In this document: piece by piece, positions 20,606 to 41,420 of the stretch
Position numbering within the stretch: position 1 is the first letter of the stretch
Layout: each line of letters starts with the position of its first letter
DNA from: a virus
Taxonomy: Duplodnaviria > Caudoviricetes
Direction: 5' to 3' (one strand)
DNA length: 64,000 bases
IMG/VR virus record: IMGVR_UViG_3300050142_000050
Span: 185,639 to 249,638 of that record
Notes under the pieces: generated by a model
What the model was told of the DNA's origin: nothing
Seen by the model: the letters and a program-made list of their open reading frames with translations, nothing else
Database searches by the model: none
Position numbers and translations under genes: made by a program

Positions 20606-22702
20606 ATGATTTCTTTCCCACCTCATGGTCTATCCGGAGATGATCTCACTCAGTGGTACTGCGATAATGCAGACGCCATCCTGAAGGATCACTCTACCGA
20701 TGATCCCACTATCGAGAGTGTCACTCTTCTGACGGGTCTCGTTGCGGCGGCTAACACCCGCTATCGCAATCACCAGGAGTCTCCACTCGCCGATTCGGTT
20801 TATGATGCTCTAGTGAAGAAACTGGGCGTTAGTGATGATCTCCAACTCACCAAGGTAGGAGATGCTTCCATACGACACCTGGTGCAGATGCCCAGCCTCA
20901 GGAAGCTCTATAGCCTCGATAGGGGCTTATATCACAGAAGCCGGTCGTGGTACATAGATCCCAAGATCGATGGAGTGGCTATCTCGATACACTATCTAGA
21001 GGGCAAGCTCTTCATGGCGGCGCTGAGCGGGAATGGGGTCGTAGGAGATCTGATCACGGCACGTATCCTCAACATCCCCTTTGTACCCAATGAGATCTCC
21101 ACCAGTCATCCGATGAGTCATATCGAAATTCGTGGTGAAATCTACGTCACGCATGGTTCACTAACCGCAATCAACAAACTCATTGCGAATATCGATGGGG
21201 TCGATCCTTACAAGAATAACAGATCGGCAGCTGCCGGTATGATCAACACTATTGACAATGATCATTTCAAACCGTACCTGTCCTTTGCGGCATGGGACAT
21301 GATCATCCATCAGGGCTTTGATCCTTATCACACACGTGGTTCGAAAATGTCGGCTCTGGCTGAGATGGGATTCATCATCCCTCCATTGGCAGTGACCGCT
21401 ACGATATCGGACGAAGTCGACGAGATCGTGAGCGAGCTGGTCACTACGCGTTCTAAGATTTGGGATTTGGGTATACCCATCGACGGTTTCGTGTTCAAAC
21501 CCAATAGTTCCCGTGAATATGAATACTCGCCCATCACGAGCGAGACCGATGTACCCATGAAGTATCACCCAGTGGCCTTTGCTTATAAGCTCCCTAACGA
21601 ATGGGAAGAGAGCAAGGTCTATGGAGTCGACTACCAATTGGGCAGGACAGGGGTAGTAACTCCTGTGTATCGCATCGCACCAGTGATTATCGATGGTACC
21701 ACCATCTCGAGCGCCACTGGTCACAATGTCTATCACATGGAAGGATTGGGGATAGGCCCCAACAGTGAGGTCACTGTCGCTAGGGCTGGTGGGGTAATCC
21801 CTGCTATCCGAACTGTGAGGACTTCACCAGATGGCCCGTTTCCTATTCCGACCGATTGTCCCAGCTGTGGAAAACCACTGGTACGACTGGAGCGGAAGCT
21901 CTTGTGCCGGGAGTTCGATTGCAAAGATAAGTTCTATTCCTATCTGACCTATATCGTCAGTAAGGAATGCCTCAACATACCCGGTTATGGGGAAGTATGG
22001 GCCAGGAGCGTAGTCGATGATTCGATCACCCTCAATCAACCTCTGACCGGCAGTCGTGTCGCAGATTTGATCTTGGGTAATAACTTCCGATCGAGTACGC
22101 CAGTTCTCTCACTGGACAAGATGCGAGGTCCGTCGTTCACATGTCGGGAGATCGTCCTAGCACTCAACATACCCAATGTGGGTGTGGTGGCTGCCGACAA
22201 GATCACCAGTCTCGTCAATGGTGACACATATTCCATCGTGTCGTACTTGACGGAACAACCCGAGACACTCGAGCGTGCAGGTATTCCAATCCATGCTCGA
22301 GAGAGTATCGCTGAGTATTTCCAAGAGGGAAGCAAGACTCGGGTATGGGCCGAAGCCTTCATCCTCAGGTTGAGTGAACTCGGTGCTATCGAGATCATGA
22401 AACCTATCCAAAGGACGATGGGTCCTGGTGTAGTCGTCACTGGTAAATTTAGTGATGGTACAAGGGATACCATCAAAGAACTCATACAGAGCATGGGATA
22501 TTCCGTCACCAAGAACGTGAACCCTGCTACTAAATTCTTACTCGCTGGGGAAGACCCATCCCAAAAGAAGATCAAAGTCGCAAAAGATCTCGGGGTGACC
22601 ATCATTAACGATGGTGGCGGGAGCTACAAGGATGCCTTGGCTAATTGGGTCAAGGACGTAGGTAACTGGAGGACATCGAGCCTCCTGAGCCTTATCGAGT
22701 AG
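20606..22702 (+). CDS. ligA: NAD-dependent DNA ligase
   Basis: KIDG adenylation motif, EIRGE, DGFVFK, FAYK, GRTGVVTPV, RAGGVIP, C4 zinc finger CPSC...C...C, C-terminal BRCT (VVVTGKF...AGEDPSQKKIKVAKDLGV). Confidence 0.93.
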   Translation: MISFPPHGLSGDDLTQWYCDNADAILKDHSTDDPTIESVTLLTGLVAAANTRYRNHQESPLADSVYDALVKKLGVSDDLQLTKVGDASIRHLVQMPSLRKLYSLDRGLYHRSRSWYIDPKIDGVAISIHYLEGKLFMAALSGNGVVGDLITARILNIPFVPNEISTSHPMSHIEIRGEIYVTHGSLTAINKLIANIDGVDPYKNNRSAAAGMINTIDNDHFKPYLSFAAWDMIIHQGFDPYHTRGSKMSALAEMGFIIPPLAVTATISDEVDEIVSELVTTRSKIWDLGIPIDGFVFKPNSSREYEYSPITSETDVPMKYHPVAFAYKLPNEWEESKVYGVDYQLGRTGVVTPVYRIAPVIIDGTTISSATGHNVYHMEGLGIGPNSEVTVARAGGVIPAIRTVRTSPDGPFPIPTDCPSCGKPLVRLERKLLCREFDCKDKFYSYLTYIVSKECLNIPGYGEVWARSVVDDSITLNQPLTGSRVADLILGNNFRSSTPVLSLDKMRGPSFTCREIVLALNIPNVGVVAADKITSLVNGDTYSIVSYLTEQPETLERAGIPIHARESIAEYFQEGSKTRVWAEAFILRLSELGAIEIMKPIQRTMGPGVVVTGKFSDGTRDTIKELIQSMGYSVTKNVNPATKFLLAGEDPSQKKIKVAKDLGVTIINDGGGSYKDALANWVKDVGNWRTSSLLSLIE

Positions 22703-22819: not shown

Positions 22820-23278
22820 ATGCCTACCCCCAACGAAGAAGGAAACCAGGACACCTTAACGGACGTCCACAGGAGTGATGACAGACAAGCCCACTGTGAA
22901 CAAATGCGAGATATATCGAGAAGGTATCCAGTAGGGGTAGTTATTCCACCGATCCAGAACGATGTGGACCCTATTGTGAACATCTTCCTGCTCTGTGGGG
23001 CAGATGTATCGGTCGGTAAAGATCATGAATACAGGCTCGCATACCTGAAGAATAGGGAACACTCTTTGAATGGGGAGTTCTTCTATAGTCCTGACAGGAT
23101 CATTGCGGTACCTAAGATCATCGCCAGTCATCACAAATTAGCGCGTCAATCAAACCGCATGGGGAGCGGTTTGGTTCGCTGTCGGCATAAACGCCTCTAT
23201 GAGGTATTGGCCTTCAATGCCATTTTGGGCAAGAAGAAGGGCAAATATAAAGACAAAAGAGCCACACGGGCTCGCTGA
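22820..23278 (+). CDS. hypothetical protein with basic C-terminus
   Basis: 152-aa ORF; RBS not obvious. Confidence 0.55.
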   Translation: MPTPNEEGNQDTLTDVHRSDDRQAHCEQMRDISRRYPVGVVIPPIQNDVDPIVNIFLLCGADVSVGKDHEYRLAYLKNREHSLNGEFFYSPDRIIAVPKIIASHHKLARQSNRMGSGLVRCRHKRLYEVLAFNAILGKKKGKYKDKRATRAR

Positions 23279-23296
23279 ACTAAGTTCCACAGGGGG

Positions 23297-23322
23297 ACAC
23301 AGGAGCCTCGCGGCTCCTGTGT
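23297..23322 (+). terminator. intergenic hairpin
   Basis: ACACAGGAGCC-TCGC-GGCTCCTGTGT. Confidence 0.65.
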
Positions 23323-23351
23323 ATGTGTGACTATTTGGAGGAGTATCGATT

Positions 23352-24023
23352 ATGACATCGACACCGTTTGATGAAGAAGGCGATCGCGCGGAACGCCTTG
23401 TCGATCCATTCGATATTAGGGTTAGGCGGGATCCAACCACTCGTATGGAAGAAGAATCACTTGTACGTCTTGGTATGGCGTCCATCGATGGGCATGCGTT
23501 TCTAATACTGGACCATGGAGGATCTGGTGTACGGAAACAGAGTTCCGCCGATTCGCTCGATGGGCTGAACATGCGTGGACGAATGATGCATATCAGTCAT
23601 GTGTTCTTCGATGAGAATGGGGAGCTGAAAGAATCCCCGCCTCTCGAGCCACTGGTGCTTCCTACACCGATGGATATCGACGTCTGGGCGAAGGAGCTCG
23701 AATCCTGGAAAGAGAGGAATCTCGGACCGGTTATCGTGATCGATAGTTTTGCCGGAGATTACTCTGACCCGACCAAAGAAATCCCTCCACTCACGACTGT
23801 GCTGCACACGACACCGAATGGGAAAACGACAACCGGGGCGTGTCGTTACGCTTTGGGAGAAGTTGGTATCCTGGATTTGGAATATATGACAGGCTATCCG
23901 GATCTTCATCCGATCACCAGCCTTAGAGTATTCGATAAGCCGGTGAAGTCTGATATACCCAAAAGGCACCATGATCACTTGATCAAACCGCATTCCAGTC
24001 GGCGTCATAGGAGATCAAAATGA
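23352..24023 (+). CDS. hypothetical protein
   Basis: GGAGGAG RBS. Confidence 0.75.
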   Translation: MTSTPFDEEGDRAERLVDPFDIRVRRDPTTRMEEESLVRLGMASIDGHAFLILDHGGSGVRKQSSADSLDGLNMRGRMMHISHVFFDENGELKESPPLEPLVLPTPMDIDVWAKELESWKERNLGPVIVIDSFAGDYSDPTKEIPPLTTVLHTTPNGKTTTGACRYALGEVGILDLEYMTGYPDLHPITSLRVFDKPVKSDIPKRHHDHLIKPHSSRRHRRSK

Positions 24024-24454
24024 ATATACCCAATCTCGATGAGCGATCCCATATTAGGGAAGACCCTATATATCGAATGACTATACTGTTCAACAAGGAG
24101 CTTTGTAAGCGTATACCAGACAGAACCAAGAATGGTGGCTCCAAATTGATCATCAAGAAGATCGAAGAGATGATCGAGTCTCGAGAGATCCTACCGCGTG
24201 CAAATTTCCAGACATTCCTGATGTCCGAGAAGTGGATGCTGGAGGTGACGAAGATCGGTAGTGAATATCCAGCGATCGCGTTGGCATTCATCGATATCGT
24301 TCCGGAGGACATTCACGAGACCCTCCCTAAGTCCACCAAGATCGAGACCTATGAGGATGAGACTCACGGAGTCATACATCCGATCAGTCTGACTCGATAT
24401 TGCGAACCACTACCCATCACAGATCAGAGTTCGGAAGCTTCCGAACAACTGTAA
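24020..24454 (+). CDS. hypothetical protein
   Basis: ATGA overlap, AGGAG RBS. Confidence 0.7.
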   Translation: MNIPNLDERSHIREDPIYRMTILFNKELCKRIPDRTKNGGSKLIIKKIEEMIESREILPRANFQTFLMSEKWMLEVTKIGSEYPAIALAFIDIVPEDIHETLPKSTKIETYEDETHGVIHPISLTRYCEPLPITDQSSEASEQL

Positions 24455-24505
24455 ATCATTTCCTATCTCAACCCAATGAGTATGGAACAACAAGGAGTAA
24501 ATACC

Positions 24506-25642
24506 ATGTCCTCTTCTGTAATTAAGCCCACCTTCATCAACCCCTCGAAGATCCCTACCGTATCTGACTGTATGATGCTTGTCATCGGGTCGTTCCATTA
24601 CTCGGCGTCGGGCACACTGTCGGTCGTCAGCGGTATCCTCAAGAGCAATGATGCTCATCAACCGATCGAGTTTGTCCTCGATCAGAGTGATGAAGCTCAC
24701 CCCATGCACGTATGTTCCTTCCGGCGCGGTGATCGCTTCGTCGTCGATCTCGTCTGGAATGGTGACGAATTCACCGGTGAGTGGAAGTTGACCTACCACA
24801 GCGGATATGTCGCAGAAGGTATGCTCAGTGTGGGTGACATCGTGGAAACCGATGAAGGTTTCACCTGTAATCCCAAGCGCGAGAGCGAAGTCTATGTCCA
24901 TCCCGAGACAGGTGAACTGTGCATCGGGTGCGATGATGGTCATCACAATCTCACCGGTCAACTCGAGGATGGTGTATATATCGGCGTATATCTCCGCAAG
25001 GAGAAAGTACCGCCCAAGTCGAAGGATGACTATTCCGATGCGGGTTTCCCCGAAGAAGAAATCCTGAACCTGGGTATGTCTCAAGCGGAGATCGAGGACG
25101 CAGTGCCCCTGAAGACACCCGAGGAGATCCTCGCGGAGGATGATGCTCCCGAGCTCAGTAAGGAATGGTTCGCCAATGCAGAGCTCAAGCATGGTGACGA
25201 AGTGATCCGTCCTTCCAGCAGAGCCTCCAAAGGTGAGGTCATCGACCAGCCTGTCAGGGAAGACGCATTGACCTTCCGTCCCGACCTGCGTTCTCCTGAC
25301 TTGGATGAAGTGACAGATCTCCAACCTGCGCTTTACGACGAGAAGAACCAATATCCTCTGGAAGTCGAGATCGTGCGAACCACCATCGCCGGTGGCGTCG
25401 CGACGATGGCTATTGTCATCACACCGACGGATGTACAGGCCGATCCGGTCGTCGGCTTGATCAAACTCAGTACTGCCGAATTCGCTCACCTCAAGGACCT
25501 CAAGAAGTTCAACGCGTTTGTGGATGGCTTTACCGGCCTTTGGTATATCGCCACCCCCAAGCAGGAGGAAACGCACAAGCCGACAGCTGTTCCCGATCGG
25601 AATGGATGTATCGACACTCTCGGTATCCGCAGCGGCTTCTAA
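24506..25642 (+). CDS. mosaic acidic protein containing a BrnA-antitoxin-like segment
   Basis: ATG 24506 after AAGGAG; internal DDAPELSKEWFANAELKHGDEVIR. Confidence 0.75.
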   Translation: MSSSVIKPTFINPSKIPTVSDCMMLVIGSFHYSASGTLSVVSGILKSNDAHQPIEFVLDQSDEAHPMHVCSFRRGDRFVVDLVWNGDEFTGEWKLTYHSGYVAEGMLSVGDIVETDEGFTCNPKRESEVYVHPETGELCIGCDDGHHNLTGQLEDGVYIGVYLRKEKVPPKSKDDYSDAGFPEEEILNLGMSQAEIEDAVPLKTPEEILAEDDAPELSKEWFANAELKHGDEVIRPSSRASKGEVIDQPVREDALTFRPDLRSPDLDEVTDLQPALYDEKNQYPLEVEIVRTTIAGGVATMAIVITPTDVQADPVVGLIKLSTAEFAHLKDLKKFNAFVDGFTGLWYIATPKQEETHKPTAVPDRNGCIDTLGIRSGF

Positions 25643-25660
25643 AGCCTACAATCACACAGG

Positions 25661-25688
25661 TAGTAGGGAGGCTCACGCCTCCCTACTA
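25661..25688 (+). terminator. intergenic hairpin (same TCAC loop as 4137)
   Basis: TAGTAGGGAGGC-TCAC-GCCTCCCTACTA followed by TTCTCTTTT. Confidence 0.7.
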
Positions 25689-25715
25689 TTCTCTTTTCAC
25701 ATAGGGGTCGAAACT

Positions 25716-26348
25716 ATGTCTGCTATCATCGTCTCGCCCACATGGGCAGCTTATGACCATTCCTCTATCGCAATAGTGGACTTCCAAGAGTTCCGTGTGG
25801 ATCTCAATCACCACAAGCTCAATATGACACCTGGCGGTGACATACTCTTTGGACAATGTGGGATTGATCGGATCACCGATACATCGAAAGAGTTCCAGAC
25901 CGATCTCCATAATACCTTGGCTTATTTCGCCATACTGTCACTCATCAATCCGTCCTCGGTTCGATATACATCTGAGTCCGATTCCATCCTGGCCAAACAT
26001 ATCAAGCGGTTCAGACACTTCATCCGTATACCCCAGGACGAGATGGTCGTCATCACATCTGCGGTGCGATACGTGATAAGTGCGCAAAAAGAAACTGCGC
26101 CCGATGCGATCGACATTACGATGATGGGTCAGTACTGGGGAGGAGGATCGGGTGGAGAGACCGGTATGGGCATGGCTATGGCCGGTATGGATCCTGAGGA
26201 TATATTCCACAAGCTCCATCATCTGCGCTATGGTGTCAGTAAGGAATTCTCCTTCTTCAATCTGACTCTCCGTCAATTCAGCTCGGCACACTACAAAGAG
26301 GCCAGAGAGGATCTTAAACATGTCATCCCATCCCTCCTCCCACAGTAG
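25716..26348 (+). CDS. hypothetical protein
   Basis: ATG 25716 after AGGGG; track ORF 25518..26348. Confidence 0.7.
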   Translation: MSAIIVSPTWAAYDHSSIAIVDFQEFRVDLNHHKLNMTPGGDILFGQCGIDRITDTSKEFQTDLHNTLAYFAILSLINPSSVRYTSESDSILAKHIKRFRHFIRIPQDEMVVITSAVRYVISAQKETAPDAIDITMMGQYWGGGSGGETGMGMAMAGMDPEDIFHKLHHLRYGVSKEFSFFNLTLRQFSSAHYKEAREDLKHVIPSLLPQ

Positions 26349-26889
26349 GTCCCTATTGGGCAAGGGTGATACCCTGTTAGTCACCCAGAAGATAGAGAAA
26401 GAAAACACATTCGGCCTGATCTATGCGAGTCATTTCGTGATCCGTGATGAGTGGTATAGTCAATATGGCCTGGCTATCCCCGTCAGACTCGATGACGTCC
26501 CTATGGATGTCATACTGGAGGGTAAGTACCCTCTGGCGGAACTCAAGTTGGAACATACCGATCCGGTACATCCCTATCTACTCCTCGATCATGACGGTAA
26601 GTTGTGGGGAGTCATCCTGACAGTCGACTCCGACGGTAGGGTCAGTAGGGATATGGTCAGTATCGATACCACCACAGACAGATGGTGGGTGAAGTCCAAC
26701 TCGATCACCGGTCCGGCTATGGGACTCTTGATCGCGAATGTGTCGCCTGATACATTCATCGAGAAGGCCTTGGTCCTCTATCCGACCACCCCGACTGAGG
26801 TTTTCTCTCTGACGAACCTCTTGGTGGAACTCCACGTCAAACATCCAACTACCCCGAAGGAGACAGAAGGAGATGGCAGCAGCAGTTAG
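26320..26889 (+). CDS. hypothetical protein
   Basis: GAGGA RBS, overlaps upstream gene. Confidence 0.7.
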   Translation: MSSHPSSHSRSLLGKGDTLLVTQKIEKENTFGLIYASHFVIRDEWYSQYGLAIPVRLDDVPMDVILEGKYPLAELKLEHTDPVHPYLLLDHDGKLWGVILTVDSDGRVSRDMVSIDTTTDRWWVKSNSITGPAMGLLIANVSPDTFIEKALVLYPTTPTEVFSLTNLLVELHVKHPTTPKETEGDGSSS

Positions 26890-27397
26890 ACATCCCACGT
26901 CTCAGGATATTATCGTCTCGACTCTGGTAGGCCTCCATAGTGGAGAACTCTCTTTCCCACTCTCCTTTCAATCCATAATGATGACAGGGGGTCGTAGGAT
27001 ACTCCAGATCCGACTCATTGACCAAATCATCAGCGATTTGGATGATGCGATAGGTCCTGATTTTTACAAGGATCCCCAGACCATATACCGAAAGGTGGTT
27101 TGGGATATCTTCTACAATGAGACAGAGGTAGACTTCGTGGTGGACATACCACTCGTCGAGCGATATCTGTCGGCATATGGCATTAAGGAGTGTAGTCTTA
27201 CCGATTACCTCTATGTCATTAAATTCTCCAAGTCCTATTTCAAACACGTTGTAAAACGTGGACAGTCTGAGTATTTCTTCGATACCAGACTGCGTTATAA
27301 GAACATACCCGAGATCGGCGACATGATCTTGGAGCGAATCGAGTATGTTTACCAATCACAAAAAAGGAGTAAGTTCCGTGTCCGAAGATCAAGATAA
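26873..27397 (+). CDS. hypothetical protein
   Basis: AAGGAG RBS. Confidence 0.7.
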   Translation: MAAAVRHPTSQDIIVSTLVGLHSGELSFPLSFQSIMMTGGRRILQIRLIDQIISDLDDAIGPDFYKDPQTIYRKVVWDIFYNETEVDFVVDIPLVERYLSAYGIKECSLTDYLYVIKFSKSYFKHVVKRGQSEYFFDTRLRYKNIPEIGDMILERIEYVYQSQKRSKFRVRRSR

Positions 27398-28349
27398 CAA
27401 AGACGTCATCCGTCTCGAAGTCGGTGAAACCTATGTGGACGAGCTGGGGGCACTGGTACACGTTCATGAGAAGTCCGCCGGAGGAGGGCGCCGTGGCCTT
27501 TTTGCAGCTATCCGTCAGTTTGAAGGTAGTGCCGCGCCCGCCGATTACCTTTTCTACTACGAAGATGGTTCGAGCGCTAGTGCGTGGAACCATACTCCCA
27601 TCGTGAGTGTATCCGAACGCAAGTGGACTGACGTATTCGCCGGTTCGAATGAAGTACCTACGTTCACTACGGCTGACGTTCCCTTCCGGACGACAGTACC
27701 GGCTTCAGATAACAATTTATACGGCTATCATCCTCAGCCGTTACCTACACACCGGTGGGGTAATCATCCCTATCCGCAGCCTCCGGTGCCCGCGCCTTCT
27801 ACCCACCACTATGAACATACGCTATCTCAGGCTGGTAAAGCTGCATATGAGGCCAAGCTCACCGAAGACCCTGACTACTTCACAAATGCCCAGAAGGCCT
27901 TCAATGACAAGCGCGATCAGGAGTTTCTCGATCGCGTCAACTCGCTCCCTACCGATCCGTTCCGGAACGAGAAGGATGTCACCGCCATCGAAAGTCCTGT
28001 CGGTGTACTGAACATCCCGACACAGTCGATCTTCAGTGTGAGCATCTCCAAAGCAGGTCTGGATTCTGAATCGACATTCGGTCCTACCTTCATGAGGATC
28101 GGTGATCCACAACCACATGGTGACAATGGTCCATGTGTCACAGTCTCGATCACTCCTGATGTGAATTACAACGCAGACGGGTCGTTCTCCGTGCGGGTGA
28201 AGCCTATGAGGGCGCTGGGCCTCATTGCCATCAACTACATCATCAATGGGTCGATGCTCCGTGAGGAGATCCGACATGGATACACCGAGATCGATCGTGA
28301 TCTCAATATCAGTATCCTCGAGAAGATCGGCTTCATCTTCCCCACATAG
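27378..28349 (+). CDS. multi-domain hypothetical protein with Pro-rich linker
   Basis: GTG 27378 after AAGGAG; YHPQPLPTH...YPQPPVPAP linker. Confidence 0.75.
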   Translation: MSEDQDNKDVIRLEVGETYVDELGALVHVHEKSAGGGRRGLFAAIRQFEGSAAPADYLFYYEDGSSASAWNHTPIVSVSERKWTDVFAGSNEVPTFTTADVPFRTTVPASDNNLYGYHPQPLPTHRWGNHPYPQPPVPAPSTHHYEHTLSQAGKAAYEAKLTEDPDYFTNAQKAFNDKRDQEFLDRVNSLPTDPFRNEKDVTAIESPVGVLNIPTQSIFSVSISKAGLDSESTFGPTFMRIGDPQPHGDNGPCVTVSITPDVNYNADGSFSVRVKPMRALGLIAINYIINGSMLREEIRHGYTEIDRDLNISILEKIGFIFPT

Positions 28350-28369
28350 GCTGACGATCAGTAAGTAGT

Positions 28370-28398
28370 GGGTAGAGGGGGTAATACCCCCTCTACCC
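28370..28398 (+). terminator. inverted repeat, 14-bp arms, 1-nt spacer
   Basis: GGGTAGAGGGGGTA-A-TACCCCCTCTACCC then TTATTTTTT. Confidence 0.7.
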
Positions 28399-28434
28399 TA
28401 CTCTTATTTTTTAAGAATACAGCCTACCCATCCC

Positions 28435-28638
28435 ATGATAAAAGAAAGGGTCGCACCTATGGGATATCTCAGCATCAGAGAGCGATATCAAGTCGCCTCC
28501 ACCAAGTCCACGCACGGTAGTGAGAAACTCACACTGCGTTATAAGACTTGGAAAGAACGCAATCTCCATCTCTTCAGTCTATCCGATGGAAGTCTTTCCC
28601 ACGCAGATTGGTTCAAGCTCAAATTCAGGAGGAAATAA
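28435..28638 (+). CDS. small basic hypothetical protein
   Basis: TAATG stop/start overlap with next gene. Confidence 0.5.
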   Translation: MIKERVAPMGYLSIRERYQVASTKSTHGSEKLTLRYKTWKERNLHLFSLSDGSLSHADWFKLKFRRK

Positions 28639-29282
28639 TGTCCTTTTTCAAAAACAGTCATCGGGAGTCGGATATCAAAGTACCCAATCTCGATGAACTC
28701 TTCAAGGAGGTCATGGAAAAGTTCGGTGATGAGATCCGCACTATCCGAGAGAAAGCGCTCAAAGATTACATCGACAGTTTTAATGAGCTCTGCAACAGTG
28801 TCGATCAGAGTGAAACCGCGATGATCCGAGCCTTTACATCGGGTCACCCAATGCCGTGGGACAAGTGTGGATCACTAGTCCCGAGTTGCGTGAAGTCATT
28901 CACCCTCAAGGACGAGGGCACACCTCTCTCGCCGGGCCGCGATATAGCCGTCGACAAACACAGCAAATTCTACGTCGCTGTGGATATAATCGACGGTGCA
29001 TTGGTTTTGCGTGGTGAAGATGATCCCCATCCTCTCGAAGGACTCCTTGGTGAGGAGACATACCGGGATAATGAGCTGGACATCACCCTCTATGGTAAAG
29101 ACTCTACCCGACCAACCGTCTCTCTCGTGATCGAGATATGCCCGATGGCTCGGCTAGGTAATGTTCGAATCACCGATACAGATGGTAGGGACTGGGTCGT
29201 CAAGTTCCGACCCGGTGAAGGTGATGCGGTACTCAAGATGATCGAGAACAAGATCATCGCTTTTCACAAGAGGGACATCTGA
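28638..29282 (+). CDS. hypothetical protein
   Basis: AGGAGG RBS, ATG 28638. Confidence 0.75.
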   Translation: MSFFKNSHRESDIKVPNLDELFKEVMEKFGDEIRTIREKALKDYIDSFNELCNSVDQSETAMIRAFTSGHPMPWDKCGSLVPSCVKSFTLKDEGTPLSPGRDIAVDKHSKFYVAVDIIDGALVLRGEDDPHPLEGLLGEETYRDNELDITLYGKDSTRPTVSLVIEICPMARLGNVRITDTDGRDWVVKFRPGEGDAVLKMIENKIIAFHKRDI

Positions 29283-29284
29283 CG

Positions 29285-30058
29285 ATGAACTACATTCTCT
29301 CAGCTATCGCTTTCGGCATAGTCCTAGTCTTGGCATATGCCGAATATTGTTCGACTAAGAAAATCACCAAGCGGGTATACGAAAGGCCTCCACCTGCGGA
29401 GACACCTGTACCCGAAGAGAAACCTACCGAGGAGGTAGTGAGTATCTTACGATCTACACCTCGAGAGATTATCGCCAAGAATGCAGATCGGATCGAAGAG
29501 TTTCGTAAATCGACTGAGGAACTAGTCGAGAAGATCAATCGCGATCCTAACTACTTGACCAACTTGGTGAATAACAAGGTTGAGAAACCCTCCCTTGCGA
29601 ACCAACATGAAAAACTCGATCCGAAGGGCCACGTCGAGAATATCATCGAGAGTCATCGCGAGCTTTTGGAAGAAGCTCTGACTCACGCAATCGAAGAACT
29701 CCGAGACTCCCATCGCAAGATGTGGTATGATCAGTACGACGACATCAACTTCCTGAAGGTATTGAGATGGTCGCCGGAAGGAAGTCTTATCGCAGCTGTC
29801 ATCATTGACAAGATTATTTCTGTCAGTGAAGAAGAGACTGAAGAGTATGCTGTCCACGCGTGTAAGTGGGTGAGTCATAATTACCTACGATTCACCGATG
29901 GAGCCCTGCGGAAGAATACTTACAGTGAGTGGTATCGGACAGCCTCATCAGGACGCACTGTGACCGACCTACCACTTTTCCGTATAGGCGACCATGAGGT
30001 AAGTGTCGAAGTCTTCATCGAACGAAGTGAGGATGGGAAAAATGTTCCGACATCCTGA
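29285..30058 (+). CDS. N-terminally anchored membrane protein with helical domain
   Basis: ILSAIAFGIVLVLAY TM; GAGGG RBS. Confidence 0.75.
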   Translation: MNYILSAIAFGIVLVLAYAEYCSTKKITKRVYERPPPAETPVPEEKPTEEVVSILRSTPREIIAKNADRIEEFRKSTEELVEKINRDPNYLTNLVNNKVEKPSLANQHEKLDPKGHVENIIESHRELLEEALTHAIEELRDSHRKMWYDQYDDINFLKVLRWSPEGSLIAAVIIDKIISVSEEETEEYAVHACKWVSHNYLRFTDGALRKNTYSEWYRTASSGRTVTDLPLFRIGDHEVSVEVFIERSEDGKNVPTS

Positions 30059-40481: not shown

Positions 40482-41420
40482 ATGCCCATCATCAATCGAA
40501 TCGAGACGGATATGTTCCGTTTCCAAGATTGTGTCGACTACATGGTGAACCCTGTAAATCTTGAAGGTATCTCCGGTAAGGGCTTGGCCCATGAGTTCCG
40601 TATGAGGTGCCCTGACAGTATCGAAGTCTACAGGACCATGTGCCGCACGAAAGAGTTGCGAGTAGGTACTGTGACCACATATGACGGTGCTGAACAGAGG
40701 TGGGGTATCATCTATCTCCCCACTAAGCGCAGCCCCTATGACCTGTCGTCTAAGGAGGACATCCAACGTGGTCTGGTGGCACTGCGCAATCTTCTCAAGA
40801 CAGATAAGTTCAAGAATGCCGTGATCGGTCTACCTATGTTAGGCTGTGGTAATGGGCAGAACAGCTACGAGATCGTCTATCCGATGATGATCGAGTTACT
40901 GAGTGACCTAGATGCTACCATCATCATCTCCATGAACCCAGAGCGCACAGAGGTACGACCTAAGTATCTCTCGATCGTAGGAGCATCCGATTTCGGAGCT
41001 GATGAGAACGATCGTACGATCATCGATAGGGTGATCGCTTCATGTATGAAGAAGTGGGGATATGCCCTGTCTGACTATACAGGGATATTGGTCCATGGTA
41101 GTGGTCCCACCGAACAATACATGGAGATCTATGCTCAGAAGGAGATGGTACCTGTTCTGAAGGTATCTTCTAATCCTGTCAAGCATCCAGCAGGTCATCC
41201 CATGGAAGCTGATCGTACACTCAGTATCTTGGGTCACGACATGATCATCTTCTCTCCGGTAGATCGTGACACGAAACGAGGAGAGTCCGTGAAACTCATC
41301 CGCTCATCAGTGGATCAGCGCAATGACGACGATAGTCCCAAACAGATGGCAGTCTACTTCCGGAGTGTCGCAGATTCGATCTCTAGAATGAGTAAGGAAG
41401 TCCCATGCGAGAAAACCTGA
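40482..41420 (+). CDS. DarG-like macrodomain fused to SLOG (YspA/DUF2493-like) domain
   Basis: VNPVNLEGISGKGLAHEF...P, LPTK, LPMLGCGNG macrodomain motifs; C-terminal SIVGASDF...ILVHGSG...YAQKEMVPV SLOG-like pattern. Confidence 0.82.
   Translation: MPIINRIETDMFRFQDCVDYMVNPVNLEGISGKGLAHEFRMRCPDSIEVYRTMCRTKELRVGTVTTYDGAEQRWGIIYLPTKRSPYDLSSKEDIQRGLVALRNLLKTDKFKNAVIGLPMLGCGNGQNSYEIVYPMMIELLSDLDATIIISMNPERTEVRPKYLSIVGASDFGADENDRTIIDRVIASCMKKWGYALSDYTGILVHGSGPTEQYMEIYAQKEMVPVLKVSSNPVKHPAGHPMEADRTLSILGHDMIIFSPVDRDTKRGESVKLIRSSVDQRNDDDSPKQMAVYFRSVADSISRMSKEVPCEKT

Follow-up and report, generated by a model that had tools for sequence, protein, structure and literature searches.

A segment homologous to the N-terminal half of the antitoxin BrnA in an acidic orphan protein of a jumbo phage: a candidate decoy for BrnT toxins

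Introduction

BrnA and BrnT are the antitoxin and the toxin of a toxin-antitoxin (TA) pair of type II from Brucella abortus (Heaton et al. 2012, as cited in PMC5086665 and PMC11980606). The two proteins form a 2:2 complex, and BrnA carries a ribbon-helix-helix (RHH) domain at its C-terminus (PMC5086665, PMC11980606). A peptide reminiscent of the BrnA N-terminus was noticed in a very acidic protein encoded in the final 64 kb of an IMG/VR virus record of 249,638 bp (IMGVR_UViG_3300050142_000050, completeness estimate 89%); this 64-kb stretch of phage DNA is called the window below. The initial annotation proposed that the phage had captured the toxin-binding segment of BrnA as a mimic against anti-phage toxins of the BrnTA type. 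We aimed to clarify whether the resemblance reflects homology, how far it extends, and what half of an antitoxin may do in a phage.

The 24-mer DDAPELSKEWFANAELKHGDEVIR is the exact translation of window positions 25139-25210 on the plus strand and lies, as annotated, in an acidic stretch, a linker with a net charge of -13. It represents residues 222-245 of P0002, the 388-amino-acid protein encoded by open reading frame (ORF) 24476..25642. Residue numbers follow P0002 throughout; translation from the internal ATG at 24506 yields P0003, which comprises 378 amino acids.

Results

Homology to the N-terminal half of BrnA

A tblastn search with residues 205-262 against 72,556 plasmids (E<=10) yielded a single match, an annotated BrnA on a Halomonas plasmid. 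The match covered exactly the 24-mer, with 12 of the 24 residues identical and an E value of 7. Starting from the Halomonas BrnA, 87 BrnA relatives were gathered, all but 2 of which carry the Pfam family PF14384, and 52 of them were aligned (alignment A1). In one BrnA (P0054), 13 of the 14 residues in the stretch DDAPELS.EWFANA were the same as in the phage. Comparison of P0002 with A1 by hhalign gave a probability of 90.8% and an E value of 1.2e-6 for residues 220-246, and a profile built from the N-terminal columns of A1 matched the phage protein with 31.3 bits (E 1e-11, Z=1). The same profile, run over all six-frame ORFs of the phage genome (4366), gave 32 bits for the target and 7.9 bits for the next best ORF. 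Shuffled sequences remained far below these values, with maxima of 9.8 bits for 20,000 shuffles of the protein and 14.6 bits for 20,000 shuffles of the acidic segment.

Because A1 had been seeded from the best match of the query, a second set of 80 genomic BrnA loci was assembled by the C-terminal pattern GWQTRMN. This set was only partly independent of the N-terminal motif, since the loci were ranked by tblastn against the Halomonas BrnA. Its N-terminal halves, with the Halomonas group removed, nevertheless scored 29.3 bits (E 2.6e-11), and the next ORF of the genome scored 8.5 bits. A third profile, from alignment A3 without the phage row, scored 30.8 bits; across the three N-half profiles the E values were 1e-11 to 3e-11 (Z=1). 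The match to BrnA N-termini that the initial annotation had put forward as a check was thus obtained, with three profiles at 29-32 bits and in addition with hhalign.

By contrast, PF14384 itself gave no match at E<=10 to the protein, the segment or the genome, and its gathering threshold of 26.1 bits was not reached. The Pfam model starts exactly at the DDAPEL motif, and the motif therefore belongs to the definition of the family; yet a match to a third of its 68 positions is too short for the threshold, which accounts for the silence of Pfam on the phage module. Moreover, PF14384 also misses genuine RHH-less BrnA ORFs that lie beside brnT (L132, L139 and L144 were scanned; see below), so that its silence is uninformative. 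That an acidic helix looks like the BrnA motif by chance would be in keeping with the missing PF14384 match and with the tblastn E value of 7. This reading is refuted by the 29-32 bits of the profiles, compared with at most 14.6 bits in 40,000 shuffles and at most 8.5 bits for other ORFs of the genome, and we regard it as practically out of the question. Homology of the segment to the N-terminal half of BrnA is, on these sequence comparisons, near certain. A structure search of the Atlas listed a BrnA cluster in its first row, which was treated as a lead only. A sequence search of the Protein Data Bank (PDB) with the segment returned only matches to IcmE/DotG repeats, which were judged spurious.

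The conserved core is kept and the DNA-binding half is lost

A full-length profile of the 80 BrnA sequences, 90 positions long, matched residues 214-262 with its positions 8-56 (22.7 bits, E 3.9e-9). In MAFFT alignments (A3, A5), the phage segment was gapless and colinear with BrnA between DDAPEL and the V-R at the beginning of the RHH strand. The closest pair was formed with a Magnetococcales BrnA (L011; 19 of 40 residues identical). The closest BrnA N-halves were scattered over Pseudomonadota and also included Geobacter, and the phage was found in leaf litter only; the alphaproteobacterial host that had been presumed is not supported.

Fifteen positions are conserved in at least 90% of the BrnA N-halves, and the phage keeps ten of them (D, D, A, P, E, L, F, A, G and the strand R). 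All nine core positions of the BrnA motif D-D-A-P-E-L-x3-[WF]-F-x2-A-x4-G are present. Of the five lost positions, one is an aspartate in front of the DDAPEL core and the other four make up RGRP: at least 90% of the 57 BrnA rows of A3 have R42, G43, R44 and P45, where the phage reads PSSR. A profile restricted to the RHH, with its G-x-G-W-Q-[TS]-R signature, gave no match at E<=1000 with filters off, so that the reported absence of GRP and RHH was borne out. The protein thus contains a homologue of the BrnA N-module but is not, as a protein, a member of the BrnA family, because RGRP, the RHH, adjacency to brnT and the Pfam threshold all fail. The initial idea that only a toxin-binding segment had been captured holds insofar as an RHH-less N-half is really present; its extent has to be corrected, since the homology spans residues 214-262 and is longer than the 24-mer.

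No BrnT toxin is encoded by the phage

PF04365 (BrnT) had no match in the phage genome at E<=1. A BrnT profile of 45 sequences (alignment A2) scored no higher than 9.4 bits in any of the six frames of the 249.6-kb genome and found nothing in P0002 at E<=1000. BrnT-BrnA fusions have been described (PMC11980606); because P0002 has no BrnT profile match, it is not a fusion of this kind, and the notion that the small beta domain upstream of the module might be a degenerate BrnT was ruled out.

The carrier might instead be the antitoxin-like partner of an unrecognised toxin of the phage itself, encoded for example by a neighbouring orphan gene. A novel toxin would be possible there, as the neighbours at 22820-30058 have neither a Pfam match above the cut-off nor a PHROGs family. 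Yet the six frames of the genome contain no BrnT-like sequence, the relatives of the module pair specifically with BrnT, and the gene has its own Shine-Dalgarno (SD) sequence and flanking hairpins, not the overlapping layout of brnTA. We therefore consider such a partner very improbable.

N-terminal halves beside intact toxins in bacteria

The decoy interpretation presupposes that the N-terminal half is the part of BrnA that neutralises BrnT. The N-half profile was run over 401 Pseudomonadota genomes and had matches in 43, from which 20 regions with partial matches or unusual frame lengths were chosen. In 6 of these 20 regions, an ORF of 70-88 amino acids that contains the module and ends soon after RRGR directly follows a full-length brnT, and no RHH was present in any frame within about 2 kb. 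The six loci are L132, L133, L138, L139, L144 and L145, in genomes G079, G036, G203, G048, G175 and G183. All 13 residues that A2 shows as invariant are retained in the BrnT of five of them (L132, L133, L138, L139 and L145, from about three lineages). An apparently intact toxin that is paired with nothing but the N-half suggests that the N-half suffices as antidote. The N-half, as the sole remnant of BrnA beside intact brnT in these versions, is thus probably the toxin-neutralising part, and the genomic arrangement suggests that these mini-BrnA ORFs form a class of BrnT antitoxins without a DNA-binding domain. A different arrangement was seen at L147 (G008:C311:196-633, a metagenome-assembled genome of Magnetococcales), where a BrnA downstream of brnT has two tandem N-modules before a single RHH.

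In addition, the complex of the L011 BrnT (alignment A2) and phage residues 205-265 (alignment A3, in which the other rows are BrnA N-halves) was predicted. The score was 0.49, compared with 0.14 for the best of three controls, and the verdict was weak support. Among solved complexes, 58 of 80 passed the applied mark, and among mismatched pairs 2 of 110, counts that are only approximate because own alignments were used; 7 of the 80 solved complexes and both mismatched pairs passed at a score of 0.60 or below. The runs agreed in at least 92% of the contacts, and the predicted local distance difference test (pLDDT) value of the partner was at least 62. The predictor is unlikely to have reproduced a solved structure, as a search with the BrnA profile found no BrnA chain in the PDB. 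The annotated view that the N-terminal part neutralises BrnT is supported by inference only, from the RHH-less ORFs beside brnT and a weak complex prediction.

The orphan module recurs in other phages

A profile scan of IMG/VR detected 6 canonical brnT-brnA pairs, a decaying BrnA-like copy in a provirus (L094), and L089. The latter is a 45-kb record rated 100% complete, in which the module DPDDAPELTEEFFERAEIRDGEKIIRPAS occupies a central position in an ORF of about 399 amino acids that has no RGRP, no RHH and no Pfam family. It shares with P0002 the module only (15 of 27 residues identical), a comparison that was made for L089 alone among the four other phage carriers described here. A scan with the DNA pattern for DDAPEL-x3-[WF]-F gave 33 viral matches. 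Twenty-seven were canonical pairs with RHH and BrnT, one was the decaying copy (L101, the same record as L094), and four lacked both RHH and BrnT: L122 (from the record of L089), L102, L117 and L125. The remaining match, L103 (MDDAPEF...), was set aside as an apparent chance match of the pattern.

The carriers L102, L117 and L125 comprise 57, 67 and 198 amino acids, respectively; the module is C-terminal in L117 and N-terminal in L125. The latter has an acidic RGEGEPP where BrnA has the basic RGRGRPP. L117 and L125 may be related to each other, judging from a common KDGKL..G.G.PP tail. No match to BrnT was found in any of the four records. Including the window, five phage records thus contain the module with RGRP degenerate or lost, without RHH and without toxin, whereas the bacterial RHH-less copies in the sampled regions mostly adjoin brnT or brnT remnants. 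This contrast is what the decoy hypothesis predicts, although the numbers are small.

The main rival to a decoy is a neutral relic: a piece of brnA would have been spliced into the gene by illegitimate recombination and would be decaying, its core surviving because the event was recent. Donors are common in phage and prophage genomes, as 27 of the 33 viral matches are complete brnTA pairs; the provirus copy L101, in which RGRP is lost, the RHH truncated and BrnT absent, exemplifies such decay; RGRP and RHH are already unrecognisable in the phage; and there is no sequence variation from which selection could be shown. However, the decay would have been very uneven, with nine core positions intact over 24 residues and the next four invariant residues as well as about 45 RHH residues erased. 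The segment is colinear in an open frame within a 378-amino-acid gene, and the RHH-less layout recurs in four other phage proteins, of which L089, the one compared, shares the module only. Taken together, we consider a relic rather unlikely. As to L101/L094 itself (provirus record G005), its BrnA copy is closely similar to that of L099, which is canonical and accompanied by BrnT; we read L101 as a BrnA in decay.

The lengths of the carriers also bear on the possibility that the module binds a BrnT-family or other partner without neutralising it, and either recruits a host RNase, for example for decay of host mRNA, or tethers the carrier, for example for exclusion of competing phages. Location in a multi-domain protein, not in a minimal peptide, would fit such a role. 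In contrast, two other phage versions (57 and 67 amino acids) are minimal, have nothing attached and fit a simple binder, and the phage has no BrnT gene to which the module could be wired. A binder of this type appears improbable to us.

Anatomy of the carrier protein

The whole carrier protein has a net charge of -33 and an isoelectric point (pI) of 4.6. It begins with a beta-rich region, followed by a small beta domain, the acidic linker with the BrnA-like module, and a C-terminal region, four parts in all (Table 1). An AlphaFold2 (AF2) model of the whole protein was too poor for use (pLDDT 38). The parts that flank the module are unrelated to BrnA, as had been stated; in particular, the CIGCDDGHHNL motif belongs to the small beta domain, a separate domain with homologues of its own.

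This small domain gave 31 phmmer matches (E 2e-6 to 9e-4, 39-49% identity), which define an unnamed family with the pattern GD.V..D.GFTC...L.I.C..G.H.L.GQ..DG.YIGVY (relatives P0092-P0122) and with invariant F, C, C and G. The members are mostly stand-alone proteins of 66-90 amino acids; fused versions (e.g. P0100, P0114, P0121) also occur. The domain was modelled with AF2 as a confident small beta structure (pLDDT 84). No PDB match to its fold was obtained at E<=0.001, the Atlas gave only generic small-barrel look-alikes, and none of the 9 members scanned had a Pfam family at the cut-off. The linker is probably disordered, judging from the AF2 model. For the N-terminal part, no relatives were detected and searches of the Atlas were uninformative. 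The C-terminal region had no usable Atlas match by features, only structural matches with a template modelling (TM) score below 0.5, and no detectable relatives.

Table 1. Features of the carrier gene and its product (window coordinates; residues of P0002)
Feature	Position	Strand	Basis or remark
Carrier gene, 378-aa very acidic orphan protein	24506..25642	+	ORF list, GGAG, gene calls
Small beta domain, residues 108-178, contains CIGCDDGHHNL	24797..25009	+	phmmer, alignment A4, AF2
Acidic linker, residues 179-262, net charge -13, pI 4.3	25010..25261	+	composition; AF2 low-confidence, mostly coil/short helix
Segment homologous to BrnA N-half, residues 214-262	25115..25261	+	profile, alignments A3 and A5
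Core 24-mer, residues 222-245	25139..25210	+	nine nearly invariant BrnA positions D, D, A, P, E, L, F, A, G kept
PSSR in place of RGRP	25211..25222	+	alignment A3; basic motif just before RHH lost
C-terminal region, residues 263-388, not an RHH	25262..25639	+	RHH-only profile no match
Predicted hairpin, 14-bp stem and T-rich tail, 17 nt past stop codon; terminator-like or intercistronic	25659..25690	+	consensus scan

The gene, its source and its neighbourhood

Translation almost certainly starts at the ATG at 24506, because a GGAG (24494-24497) is located 8 nt upstream, the first ATG of the 24476 ORF has no such site, and the gene callers agree: on public contigs they start at 24506 (P0003), and contigs from 41 collection blocks encode an identical product. 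The carrier protein matched no Pfam or PHROGs family, and PADLOC gave nothing. Searches of 50,697 phage records with megablast and tblastn did not match the carrier, and a word-indexed search with residues 196-275 for shorter relatives returned nothing.

The phage was detected in leaf-litter metagenomes only, among sequencing runs kept as contigs that included no RNA run. The gene sequence was identical in every sample: four runs with lower word shares were compared and showed no differences, the lower shares being due to fragmentary contigs. In three runs, a short unrelated contig with three inserted letters and loose ends was placed on 24667-24701; it was taken for the sequence of another organism. 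The NAD-dependent DNA ligase of the phage is about 29% identical to the ligases of Goslar and phiKZ-like jumbo phages. Its gene (20606-22702) is followed by a block of nine consecutive plus-strand genes (22820-30058), none of which matches Pfam at the cut-off or belongs to a PHROGs family.

Strong hairpins bracket the carrier gene: a perfect 18-nt palindrome (24429-24446) falls within the 3' end of the gene upstream, and the hairpin with the 14-bp stem (Table 1) lies behind the carrier gene. Another hairpin, with a 13-bp stem (28370-28398), follows the gene cluster. All three may be intercistronic. Further downstream, a protein encoded at 40482-41420 contains a Macro domain (Pfam Macro, 30.4 bits versus a cut-off of 22). 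No DarT was found in the phage genome, and a Macro-domain protein without DarT would, by analogy, fit the AdfM type of chimallivirus orphan antitoxin (PMC13309987).

Discussion

A candidate antitoxin decoy

We tentatively propose that the module is an antitoxin decoy that disarms a BrnT-family RNase toxin of the host, a possibility that we rate just short of probable. In this model, a module of about 50 residues descended from the N-half of BrnA would reside in the linker of a mosaic, very acidic protein of a jumbo phage of about 250 kb. It would bind BrnT-family toxins of the host that are freed or activated during infection and would keep them from cleaving RNA. Loss of the RHH would mean loss of the DNA-binding and dimerisation domain, so that the decoy would be made without a repressor function. 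The other domains of the carrier may stabilise or place the module, or serve other targets.

Several points weigh against this proposal. No BrnA chain was found in the PDB that would show which part of BrnA binds BrnT; the complex prediction lent weak support, with BrnA rows filling the alignment of the phage segment. A bias towards the matching subfamily is possible in the BrnA alignments, because relatives of the Halomonas BrnA served to seed or rank them. The module is one part of a 378-amino-acid protein, the rest of which the proposal does not explain, and full-length relatives of P0003 were found neither among 5.8e9 clusters nor among 1.84e9 representatives. Since there are no such relatives and all sequences of the gene are identical, selection on the module is not measurable. 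Finally, no PADLOC model matches BrnT and BrnA, and we found no paper that demonstrates restriction of phages by BrnTA. The role of BrnTA as anti-phage toxins, which the initial annotation took for granted, thus found no backing; in one metagenomic study a phage role was merely assumed (PMC8418041).

If the module does bind BrnT, the phage genome would directly attest that BrnTA, a TA family that is very common, is of consequence for phages. The toxin-neutralising element of BrnA would be narrowed down to about 30-50 residues. Phages would also be seen to counter type II systems with no more of an antitoxin than its binding peptide, either stand-alone or grafted into larger proteins. The RHH-less form is invisible to domain databases, and Pfam was silent even on the bacterial copies scanned. 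A more far-reaching scenario can be drawn, in which the N-half of BrnA is a portable, peptide-sized BrnT tag that phages have captured repeatedly, BrnT RNases are a common effector arm against phages, and P0003 is a polyvalent counter-defence protein whose small beta domain (of which stand-alone phage-type proteins also occur), BrnA tag and C-terminal domain each disarm a different host factor; as a whole, we think this scenario distinctly unlikely.

Comparison with known systems

The phage module resembles BrnA (PF14384, formerly DUF4415) in that residues 214-262 align without gaps to the N-half, from DDAPEL...F..A....G to the start of the RHH strand. It differs from BrnA in the absence of RGRP, of the RHH (including the GKGWQTRMN helix region) and of a brnT, both adjacent and elsewhere in the genome. 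BrnA is a repressor of about 90 amino acids, whereas the phage module lies in the middle of a 378-amino-acid protein; and in the BrnT/BrnA operon brnT is located immediately upstream and usually overlaps, an arrangement that the phage gene lacks.

The bacterial mini-BrnA ORFs contain the same module, end shortly after the (R)RGR position and likewise have no DNA-binding domain. However, they are stand-alone proteins of 70-88 amino acids that follow an intact brnT, while the phage copy is embedded and toxin-less. The other orphan N-modules of phages share DPDDAPEL..[EW]F..A, a degenerate or lost RGRP, and the absence of an RHH and of a BrnT from the record. They differ in their carriers (57, 67, 198 and about 399 amino acids) and in the position of the module therein.

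Orphan antitoxins of phages have precedents. AdfN, a NADAR protein, is a phage orphan antitoxin against DarTG1 (PMC11825919), AdfM is a DarG2-like macrodomain of chimalliviruses, which are nucleus-forming jumbo phages (PMC13309987), and an antitoxin mimic has been described for a Vibrio phage (PMC11481870). By analogy, the proposed decoy would be a variant of this established phage counter-defence. As with AdfN and AdfM, the phage encodes a homologue of an antitoxin without the cognate toxin, in the present case only half of the antitoxin. In contrast, AdfN and AdfM are enzymes that reverse the modification made by the toxin, whereas the element described here is a segment of about 50 residues from a type II antitoxin, carried within a larger protein.

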